DNA of 27,378 nt from Piedraia hortae CBS 480.64 (taxonomy: Eukaryota). The stretch spans positions 62,001 through 89,378 of the forward strand of contig MU006016.1 in assembly GCA_010093745.1 (NCBI GenBank). The letters run 5' to 3'. This document shows, piece after piece, positions 2,468 to 14,665 of the stretch (the first letter of the stretch is position 1; every line of letters starts with the position of its first letter). The position numbers and the translations under genes were made by a program. The notes under the pieces are model-generated. The model was not told the origin of the DNA, did not search any database, and saw nothing but the letters and a program-made list of their open reading frames with translations.

Positions 2468-3860
2468 TGGATTTGATTAGCTCTCGATAGGGGCATGGCG
2501 GCGTTAGGTTTGATGTTGACAGGCACAGACCTCTCCTACGATGACCTATATGTAGGCCACACTCCGGGGCCGCGGGCCAAGCCCAGGATGGATGATTGGA
2601 TGAACTTTGCCCCAGTACCAAGCCGTACTGGGCGAGCCATGCCACCGGGTGTCGGCATAAAGAATAGAATACAGAACCTCCGCTGAGGAGGGCGGGGGTG
2701 GTGCGGGGCGTTGAAGAATGGGAGAGGATTATTGTCGTCGTCGTCGTCGTCGTCATCGTCGTCGTCGTCGCTGCCACCGTAGTGGCTTGCATTGTCGATA
2801 TGGTCCGCCAGGCCTCGGTTTAGCGAGAAAAAGAAGACCCAGATTTTGCCTCTGTGCTCGCTTGGTTTGATTCGTTCCGGGTTGGGGCGGGATAGCGTGG
2901 GCAGCAGCGACCGCTGTGGCTGTGGCGATGGTAGCTGCACTGGTGGCGAGTGCAAACCTGCTTTGCTATGACCTATATGTAGGCTGCACACATTAGGGCG
3001 CTGGCCAGGGTGCGAAGTTGGCTCCTGTCTCAAACGCGTACTGAGTGGACCAAATGGGGATGAATGCAGGCATTGGTTGCCAGGCGCCCCAGTGCCAGGC
3101 AAAACGCTCTCACTGACGAGACAACAGCGCTAAAGACCAAAGAGGGTATACCTCTTTGATCTTTCCCCATTAATGGGGTCACGTTGAGGACTTAGGCAAC
3201 TGGGATCCAGCCCTAAGATGAGCGATTGACTGTTCTAACGTCTCCCAGTTAACTCTCAGGGCATGTCCTACCCAAAATAGTACTGTCTGGGATGATCGAA
3301 CTCGCGCGAACTGTGGGTTCAAAATCCTGTCTCATAAATTGACAGCTCCTTGTAGCCACCAAACTCGATGCGCTGGCAAAGCTCGCCACGCTCAGACAAG
3401 AGCTTTTGGGCAGACGTGAGTGTCCGAATTCCTCCGCCACCGGAAACTGGTTTAGAGACACAGATACATTTTATGTTCCAGCGTGGCCCTTTTCCTCCCT
3501 TGCACCTTGTCGTCTCTTAGGTCTTGAGGAAGCGGGGGTTGCAGGTGGTGCAGGGCGGCGAGCTGTCTCATACCACCCAGCGTGATGGCACGGGGATGCC
3601 GCTCTTGCTGTAGGCGAGAATGGTTGAGAAATTCGGCAAGGTTGCAATCGTTGCAATTGTTGTTATCACCATCCTTGCCTATATCCCTGGCGTTGTCTGC
3701 CATGGACTGGTGTGAGAAGGAATGAAAAAACCACCAGACAATTGCAGTTGGGCTATCTTGGTTTGATTTGCTCCTCAATGGGTAGTGCAGCGATAATGGC
3801 GGCAGCGGCTGCAGCGGCATTGGTGGCAGTACTTGTGGCAGGAGACACTGTCTAATGACA
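2468..3860. repeat. Degenerate tandem repeat of 2-3 diverged units
   Basis: Exact 17-mer ATGACCTATATGTAGGC at 2541 and 2968. Exact 12-mer CTTGGTTTGATT at 2861 and 3757, with variant TGGATTTGATT at 2468. Similar G-rich blocks at 2684-2710 and 3525-3557. Landmarks occur in the same order. Confidence 0.6.
2734..2769. repeat. (GTC)n microsatellite, 12 units with one ATC interruption
   Basis: Directly visible: (GTC)7 ATC (GTC)4. Confidence 0.95.
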
Positions 3861-13559: not shown

Positions 13560-14665
13560 ATGGCTCACTCCCTCCGTCAACTGAGTCGCGGCGTCGCAGC
13601 CGCGCGCAGCTACTCGTCTCTTATTCCGTCAAGCGGGTACGGTTCGACGGCTAAGAACCTGCGCATCACGGACCAGACTAAGGTCCTGTTCCAAGGCTTT
13701 ACGGGCAAGCAGGGCACCTTTCACGCCGAGCAGGCGATTGGATATGGTACAAGGGTAGTGGGCGGAACAAATCCGAAGAAAGCCGGCTCCGAGCATCTCG
13801 GGCTGCCGGTGTTCAAGGACGTTGCAGAGGGAGTCAAGGCCACGGGCGCAGATGCGAGTGTCATCTTTGTGCCGCCGCCGGTCGCGGCTGGCGGAATCGA
13901 AGAGGCCATCAAGGCTGAAGTTCCGCTCGTGGTTTGCATCACAGAAGGCATCCCGCAGCACGATATGGTGCGCATTACAGACATGTTGAAAACGCAGAGC
14001 AAGACGCGGCTCGTCGGGCCCAACTGCCCCGGAATTATTGCGCCGGTAAGTGGAACTGATGAGTTTCTTTATATGATAGGAAGAGTCTGAATTTCGGATG
14101 ACACTTCATTTACACACCTCTGATCCTTTACTCAGCCATGTTGCTGACATATATCTGCGTCTAGGGCCAATGCAAGATTGGCATCATGCCGGGCTTTATC
14201 CACAAGCGCGGTCGCGTCGGAATCGTGTCCCGCTCCGGCACGCTGACGTACGAGGCAGTAAACCAGACCACGCAAGCAGGGCTGGGCCAATCTCTCGTTG
14301 TGGGCATTGGCGGAGACCCGTTCTCGGGCACCAACTTCATCGACTGTCTGCGCGTCTTCCTCAACGATCCTGACACGGAGGGAATTATCATGATTGGTGA
14401 GATCGGAGGTAGTGCCGAAGAAGATGCAGCCGACTTCTTGAAGGCGGAAAACAAAAACAATACGCCTGTCGTGAGCTTCATTGCTGGAATCTCAGCACCA
14501 CCGGGACGACGAATGGGTCACGCTGGTGCCATTGTCAGCGGCGGTAAGGGTGGTGCGGACAGCAAGATCTCGGCACTGGAGTCAGCCGGCGTTGTGGTGG
14601 AGCGGAGCCCAGCTGCTCTTGGCAAAACTCTCCGCGAAGAATTCGTCAAGCGAGATCTTATCTAG
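13560..14665 (+). CDS. LSC1: Succinyl-CoA ligase alpha subunit, mitochondrial, 2 exons
   Basis: Exons 13560-14045 and 14165-14665 give 328 aa. Intron GTAAGT..GCTGAC..TAG at 14046-14164. Motifs: [29 protein letters not shown], phospho-His motif [10 protein letters not shown]. Arg/Ser-rich N-terminal presequence. Confidence 0.97.
14052..14126 (+). ncRNA. Intronic box C/D snoRNA (2'-O-methylation guide for 25S rRNA)
   Basis: Box C CTGATGA 14056-14062, D' CTGA 14087-14090, C' CGGATGA 14095-14101, D CTGA 14120-14123, terminal stem GGA/TCC. Guide TATGATAGGAAGAG (14072-14085) is the reverse complement of conserved LSU rRNA CUCUUCCUAUCAUA. Confidence 0.85.

Follow-up and report, generated by a model that had tools for sequence, protein, structure and literature searches.

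A predicted box C/D snoRNA in an intron of a presumed succinyl-CoA ligase alpha gene of Piedraia hortae, with a guide for an LSU rRNA site already predicted in other fungi

Described guides for the same rRNA stretch

The closest described systems come from two Pezizomycotina species. In Neurospora crassa, the box C/D snoRNA CD3 (Nc CD3) is a 90-nt RNA encoded on chromosome I that was cloned and is northern-positive according to Table 1 of Liu 2009 (PMC2780460). The entry for Nc CD3 in that paper assigns it 26S-Um2840 as its only target, selected through a D' guide at a match of 14/0, and gives no homologue for either S. cerevisiae or S. pombe (PMC2780460). By the naming rule of PMC5824354, Nc CD3 is the snoStrip family CD_3. 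In Aspergillus fumigatus, Table 1 of Jochl 2008 (PMC2377427) lists Afu-198 (accession AM921922), a 130-nt RNA represented by 8 clones that maps to an intergenic position (Afu1g02700/Afu1g02680) and for which Cm2856 and Um2859 in 26S are the tabulated predictions.

Guides for the same LSU stretch have also been described in animals and plants. Drosophila snoMe28S-U3344 (RF00526) is described as intron-encoded in Stt3A and as yielding a processed RNA. SNORD49, the plant U49 (RF00277), pairs with this stretch, and Arabidopsis SnoR64 guides Um2884, a site supported by RiboMeth-seq (PMC8053127 Table 1). As the Arabidopsis homologue of Nc CD3, the entry of Liu 2009 gives snoR29 (PMC2780460), whereas PMC8053127 assigns SnoR29 to G2392/G2410/U2411 and Um2884 to SnoR64. 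Because these RiboMeth-seq assignments disagree with it, we set the snoR29 label aside; it looks outdated or wrong.

The locus considered here lies in a 27,378-nt stretch of Piedraia hortae CBS 480.64 (contig MU006016.1, positions 62,001 to 89,378 of the forward strand), which is referred to below as the window. Judged from the sequence, the intron at 14046-14164 of the window very probably encodes a single-guide box C/D methylation-guide snoRNA. Like Nc CD3, the predicted RNA carries a D' guide that selects the nucleotide corresponding to Um2840; on the target-table entries by which the two were likened, Nc CD3 is the longer RNA, with ~75-80 nt predicted for the window unit. The window snoRNA would be a functional counterpart of Nc CD3 and probably its orthologue. 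It also shares its predicted nucleotide with Afu-198, for which the tabulated Um2859 is the same position, but Afu-198 as tabulated is longer, intergenic and also predicted for Cm2856, the U49 site. In the Drosophila consensus, UGAUAGGAAGAGU precedes a D'-like AUGA, and the two stand in the register of the window unit; unlike a full counterpart it aligns over the 5' half only, and the identity of U3344 with the same nucleotide would follow from this register. SNORD49 differs in targeting the C three bases upstream, and SnoR64 differs in guiding the neighbouring U of the same UU pair.

No Rfam family reached its gathering score anywhere in the window. On the intron, RF01185 (snR75) scored 20.0 bits against a gathering score of 40, with the boxes and AU-rich spacers aligned and a different guide; RF00526 (snoMe28S-U3344) scored 18.9 bits against 50, with an E-value of 0.47; and RF00277 (SNORD49) scored 10.7 bits against 37, with alignment of boxes and spacers only and a register that selects the U three bases downstream. 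The eight Rfam matches to the intron at E up to 10 included no Afu family.

Host intron and box anatomy

The following features were assigned, with positions numbered from the first nucleotide of the window.

13560..14045, + strand: host exon 5' of the intron, from the ATG at 13560; an ORF whose start was located by script
14046..14164, + strand: intron, 119 nt, GT..AG, read from the sequence; it separates two in-frame ORFs and an X2 contig joins across it
14046..14054, + strand: 5' arm of a possible terminal stem, GTAAG(T)GGA, including the 5' splice site; duplex with 14124-14131
14051..14128, + strand: predicted mature box C/D snoRNA, ~75-80 nt, with ends placed from the box positions
14056..14062, + strand: box C, CTGATGA, with C at the consensus R position of RUGAUGA, from sequence
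14072..14086, + strand: D' antisense element TATGATAGGAAGAGT, in which A14082 is the fifth nucleotide upstream of D'; 15-bp LSU pairing
14087..14090, + strand: box D', CTGA, from sequence, in the register of the Rfam snoMe28S-U3344 consensus
14096..14101, + strand: box C', GGATGA, matching 5/6 of UGAUGA with one mismatch, from sequence
14102..14119, + strand: D spacer CACTTCATTTACACACCT, 18 nt, for which no rRNA target was found in the proxy rDNA
14120..14123, + strand: box D, CTGA, from sequence, invariant in alignment A1
14124..14131, + strand: 3' arm of the possible terminal stem, TCCTTTAC; duplex with 14046-14054
14144..14148, + strand: candidate branch-point motif CTGAC, 17 nt upstream of the 3' splice site, from sequence
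14165..14665, + strand: host exon 3' of the intron, including the stop codon; an ORF covered by X2 contigs

We take the host protein to be succinyl-CoA ligase alpha, a reading of the translation that relies on familiar motifs such as the GHAGA loop. The intron has a GC content of 0.39, compared with 0.52 for the window, and is therefore AT-rich. Toward its 3' end we presume CTGAC 14144-14148 to be the branch point, going by the motif consensus as we know it, and box D lies ~24 nt from this motif. In the public run X2, one contig connects 14044/45 directly with 14164/65 and so leaves out 119 nt that have GT..AG ends. As X2 is labelled RNA by guess only, this contig establishes the existence of a joined form compatible with splicing, and nothing beyond. 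Gaps in the X2 contig coverage of the intron carry no information on the small RNA. In the DNA run X1, which may be the source of the window, the intron region is covered without a break. The sequence-only reading had described a 119-nt intron within the host ORF that contains a C-D'-C'-D unit. The GT..AG ends, the split in-frame ORFs and the X2 join all agree with the former, and the latter holds as well, since the four boxes occur in canonical order on the sense strand.

The arrangement within the intron is that of a box C/D snoRNA. Box C lies near the 5' end of the predicted RNA and box D near its 3' end, D' and C' are internal, and both order and spacing are canonical. The spacer from box C to box D' is 24 nt and the loop from box D' to box C' is 5 nt. 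The ends of C/D snoRNAs usually fall 4-5 nt ahead of box C and 2-5 nt past box D. On this basis the 5' end of the predicted snoRNA would lie ~5 nt from the 5' splice site. Box C starts 10 nt past the 5' splice site (14046-14055), far nearer than the 41-60 nt given as typical for Neurospora intronic snoRNAs in Liu 2009 (PMC2780460). Our literature search found no fungal snoRNA tied to a succinyl-CoA gene, and the word "succinyl" is absent from the main text of two fungal snoRNA surveys.

The terminal stem is the weak point of the snoRNA call. Contiguous Watson-Crick pairing is confined to three pairs, GGA 14052-54 with TCC 14124-26. With U14051 bulged, the duplex extends to 8 bp (-6.4 kcal/mol) by using the GUAAG of the 5' splice site; an equally good stem arose in 95/1000 shuffled 3' flanks, which is not better than chance. 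When the intron was folded at minimum free energy (MFE), the stem did not form. Nor did the intron as a whole fold better than its shuffles (z +1.04), 167 of the 200 folding at least as well. Poor folding is usual for C/D snoRNAs, in which the guides stay open.

Pairing with a proxy LSU rRNA and the predicted target nucleotide

The rRNA partner of the guide was analysed on a proxy. Scanning prokaryote assemblies with the 22-mer named in the sequence-only reading returned 23 loci (L120-L142); viral contigs contained 0 loci with this LSU 22-mer. All 13 of those 23 loci that were scanned are pieces of eukaryotic LSU rRNA (Rfam LSU_rRNA_eukarya), some beside a 5S gene, and these 13 are therefore contaminants of prokaryote assemblies. 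The proxy rDNA unit was taken from one contig, with the LSU at positions 706-4503 of L127, including a group I intron at 3043-3385, and the SSU at 128-1927 of L146. L126 and L127 belong to a contig of 24076 nt (CBDCAQ010000004.1) that is deposited under a Bryobacteraceae MAG and contains two eukaryotic rDNA units in tandem (SSU, 5.8S, LSU). This contig is a eukaryotic contaminant of the bacterial bin, probably of fungal origin.

The D' guide at 14072-14086 pairs with GCTCTTCCTATCATA of the complete eukaryotic LSU in L127 over 15 bp, with one terminal G·U. On this rRNA, which is a proxy and not the organism's own, pairing begins at the first nucleotide before D', leaving a gap of 0 nt. The complementarity of a 14-nt D' guide to a conserved LSU segment, as first noticed in the sequence, is thus borne out on L127 at a length of 15 bp with one G·U. 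The likelihood of such an arrangement by chance was assessed with a scan for any CTGA that lies at most 120 nt after a C box and is preceded, at a distance of 0-2 nt, by an rRNA-antisense k-mer; the scan was repeated on mononucleotide shuffles. The real window contains exactly one such site (14057/14087). The shuffled windows yielded a site in 0/200 cases at k=14, 2/200 at k=12, 1/200 at k=11 and 17/200 at k=10; a separate shuffle run at k=11 gave 5/300.

In box C/D guides the methylated nucleotide pairs with the fifth nucleotide upstream of box D or D'. Read away from D', the guide begins with T14086, G, A, G and A14082 (positions 1 to 5), and the partner of A14082 is the second U of CUCUUCC, the first of its UU pair, at position 4012 of L127. 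The D'+5 rule therefore predicts as target the LSU uridine equivalent to yeast U2882, beside the peptidyl-transferase centre.

The equivalence of this position among species was established by matching the nucleotide identities in published site tables to L127. Seven Neurospora sites (Gm2773, Um2840, Am2858, Gm2875, Am2904, Cm2906 and Cm2917) fit at 7/7 only with Um2840 on 4012; the next best of the 16 positions tested gave 4/7. All five A. fumigatus sites fit at one offset only (next best, 3), which places Um2859 on 4012 and Cm2856 on 4009. The Arabidopsis sites likewise fit at a single offset (14/14), with C2880, the U49 target, on 4009 and Um2884, the SnoR64 target, on 4013. Yeast G2791/G2793 correspond to Arabidopsis G2792/G2794, and yeast Um2921 to Arabidopsis Um2922 (PMC8053127). 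From the Arabidopsis offset together with these equivalences, 4012 is Arabidopsis U2883 and yeast U2882. Trichophyton rubrum TRnc_3573 (accession KC353276, predicted 25S Um2867) was considered as a guide for the same site and rejected as unmappable, as the offsets derived from other rows of its table disagree (-13 or -16).

These results change part of what had been concluded from the sequence. The target had been placed at the first U of CUCUUCC, about U2882; the number stands, but it is the second U that pairs with A14082. The statement that U49 targets the C three bases upstream is correct, as C2880 falls on 4009 and the present target on 4012. The statement that no budding-yeast methylation is known at this U agrees with Liu 2009, whose entry gives no S. 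cerevisiae or S. pombe guide homologue (PMC2780460). The proposal of a shifted-register or filamentous-fungus-specific guide does not survive: the same nucleotide is the predicted target of Nc CD3 and Afu-198, and the Drosophila guide has the same register. The Rfam search suggested for the intron did lead to a described relative, RF00526, whose guide stands in the same register and would select the same nucleotide, although at a score below gathering. As the Neurospora, Aspergillus and Drosophila guides share the site, the target already has published predicted guides, and the window guide is a further member of this set, not a shifted U49. Site and guide have already been predicted in two other Pezizomycotina species and have a counterpart in the fly, and there is no support for calling the target new.

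The mechanism that we propose follows general knowledge of intronic snoRNAs. The host pre-mRNA would be spliced and the lariat debranched, after which exonucleases would trim the intron to a particle assembled on the C/D and C'/D' motifs with Snu13, Nop56, Nop58 and fibrillarin. In this particle the 15-nt element upstream of D' would pair with the conserved LSU stretch GCUCUUCCUAUCAUA, a pairing computed on the proxy rRNA. Fibrillarin would then 2'-O-methylate the nucleotide opposite guide position 5, which under the D'+5 rule is yeast U2882, Neurospora U2840 and A. fumigatus U2859. The main mechanistic uncertainty is whether position 6 is modified as well, or instead. The +5 rule itself gives U2882, and both fungal predictions, Nc Um2840 and Afu Um2859, are the +5 nucleotide. 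It is therefore unlikely that the same snoRNA directs methylation to the yeast U2883 equivalent, the neighbouring U opposite guide position 6, either alone or together with U2882. In favour of that reading, the neighbouring U has A14081 as its partner, D' guides active at both position 5 and position 6 have been validated in Arabidopsis (PMC8053127), and Arabidopsis Um2884, attributed to SnoR64 by RiboMeth-seq (PMC8053127), adjoins the +5 target at L127 4013.

Nanopore signals (pseudouridine-model/U-to-C) have been tabulated for this part of the 26S rRNA of C. thermophilum (PMC12723226 Supplementary File 2). They amount to 0.355 at U2838, 0.143 at U2840 and 0.247 at U2841, with the next three U's below 0.035; U2840 in the numbering of that table is the nucleotide targeted by the window guide. 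Neighbour effects of a pseudouridine at U2838 could explain the raised signals at U2840 and U2841.

Metagenome relatives, the D spacer and significance

A metagenome scan with a 17-mer from the window, comprising the end of the guide and D', matched at least 119 loci. Among the 119 matches listed, 20 have a TGATGA within 45 nt upstream and represent 15 distinct sequences plus 5 duplicates; the other 99 have no TGATGA within that distance and were set aside as probable chance matches to the 17-mer. A CTGA follows 25-90 nt past D' in 11 of the 15 distinct sequences among these matches. Three of the loci (L007, L010 and L090) have the C box and no CTGA 25-90 nt downstream, and L016 ends at the contig end. 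Ten of the distinct metagenome units among the matches listed can be aligned to the window along their full length, giving alignment A1 (the window plus these ten). The search pattern accounts for the invariance of the 17-mer in A1, but neither for the C box, always 9-13 nt upstream, nor for the C' and D boxes. The TGATGA of box C is invariant in this alignment.

A tblastn search with the spliced host protein against the 119 metagenome loci listed found no match, so no orthologous host intron was recovered. The unit in L062 (799-2271) lies between two same-strand ORFs that read by eye as a mitochondrial carrier, and is probably intronic. This carrier-like host, together with the lack of a relative of the host protein in the 119 listed loci, indicates that the hosts of the guide differ between lineages.

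Seven of the metagenome units form a tight group (L019:575-668, L105:275-367, L062:1475-1567, L021:432-525, L074:1451-1544 on the minus strand, L081:251-344 on the minus strand and L096:4-94). In all seven the D' guide is that of the window unit and the D spacer is conserved (GATTTAGACAT). The latter pairs weakly with positions 53-64 of the proxy SSU (12 bp, 3 G·U), and on sequence grounds a second target near the 5' end of 18S is possible for GATTTAGACAT.

The D spacer of the window unit was compared with the proxy SSU, ITS1, 5.8S, ITS2 and LSU. The best pairings were 9-11 bp long and contained 2-4 G·U; in no case did the pairing start beside box D. The window, which is without a tRNA, offered no pairing partner for it either. 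The D spacer is probably not a methylation guide. By our own count on A1, the 28 nt spanning C' to D agree with the L019-type group at 19/28 positions, including an ATTTA-ACA core. This likeness would be accounted for if the snoRNA had a double function, the D spacer pairing with a non-rRNA target (snRNA, tRNA or mRNA) or giving accessory pairing, and Neurospora C/D snoRNAs with snRNA and tRNA targets are among those reported in Liu 2009 (PMC2780460). We hold such a function to be improbable: the spacer has no target in the proxy SSU, ITS, 5.8S, LSU or the window, the single target in the entry for Nc CD3 (PMC2780460) speaks against it, and likeness within an AT-rich spacer of fixed length may equally reflect shared ancestry or chance.

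Several of these observations could be joined into one scenario, in which a CD3-type guide moved into the succinyl-CoA ligase alpha intron flush with the 5' splice site, the GUAAG would serve as the outer half of the terminal stem and so couple snoRNP assembly to the splicing of a TCA-cycle mRNA, and the ATTTA-ACA core would mark a second target. Taken jointly, we consider this very improbable. Finally, an ordinary intron whose box C/D features are decayed or have arisen by chance, with no stable RNP and no methylation, would fit Rfam scores that are all below threshold, the weak terminal stem, the imperfect boxes C and C' and a D spacer without a target in the proxy rDNA, but it is very unlikely given that a perfect 14-15-nt antisense element directly before CTGA and behind a C box arose in none of 200 shuffles, that guides for this site have been published from two further Pezizomycotina species, and that all four boxes stand at canonical spacing.

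The preferred reading is thus a single-guide snoRNA of the Nc CD3 type that is predicted to act through its D' element. As both site and guide have already been predicted in Neurospora and Aspergillus, with a counterpart in Drosophila, this reading makes no open question newly testable, and it is only mildly new in the host gene and in the unusual placement ~5 nt from the 5' splice site. The annotation of the P. hortae genome gains one well-supported snoRNA gene from it, and it predicts a 2'-O-methyl group on a uridine of the LSU next to the peptidyl-transferase centre, a position for which budding and fission yeast have no listed guide.
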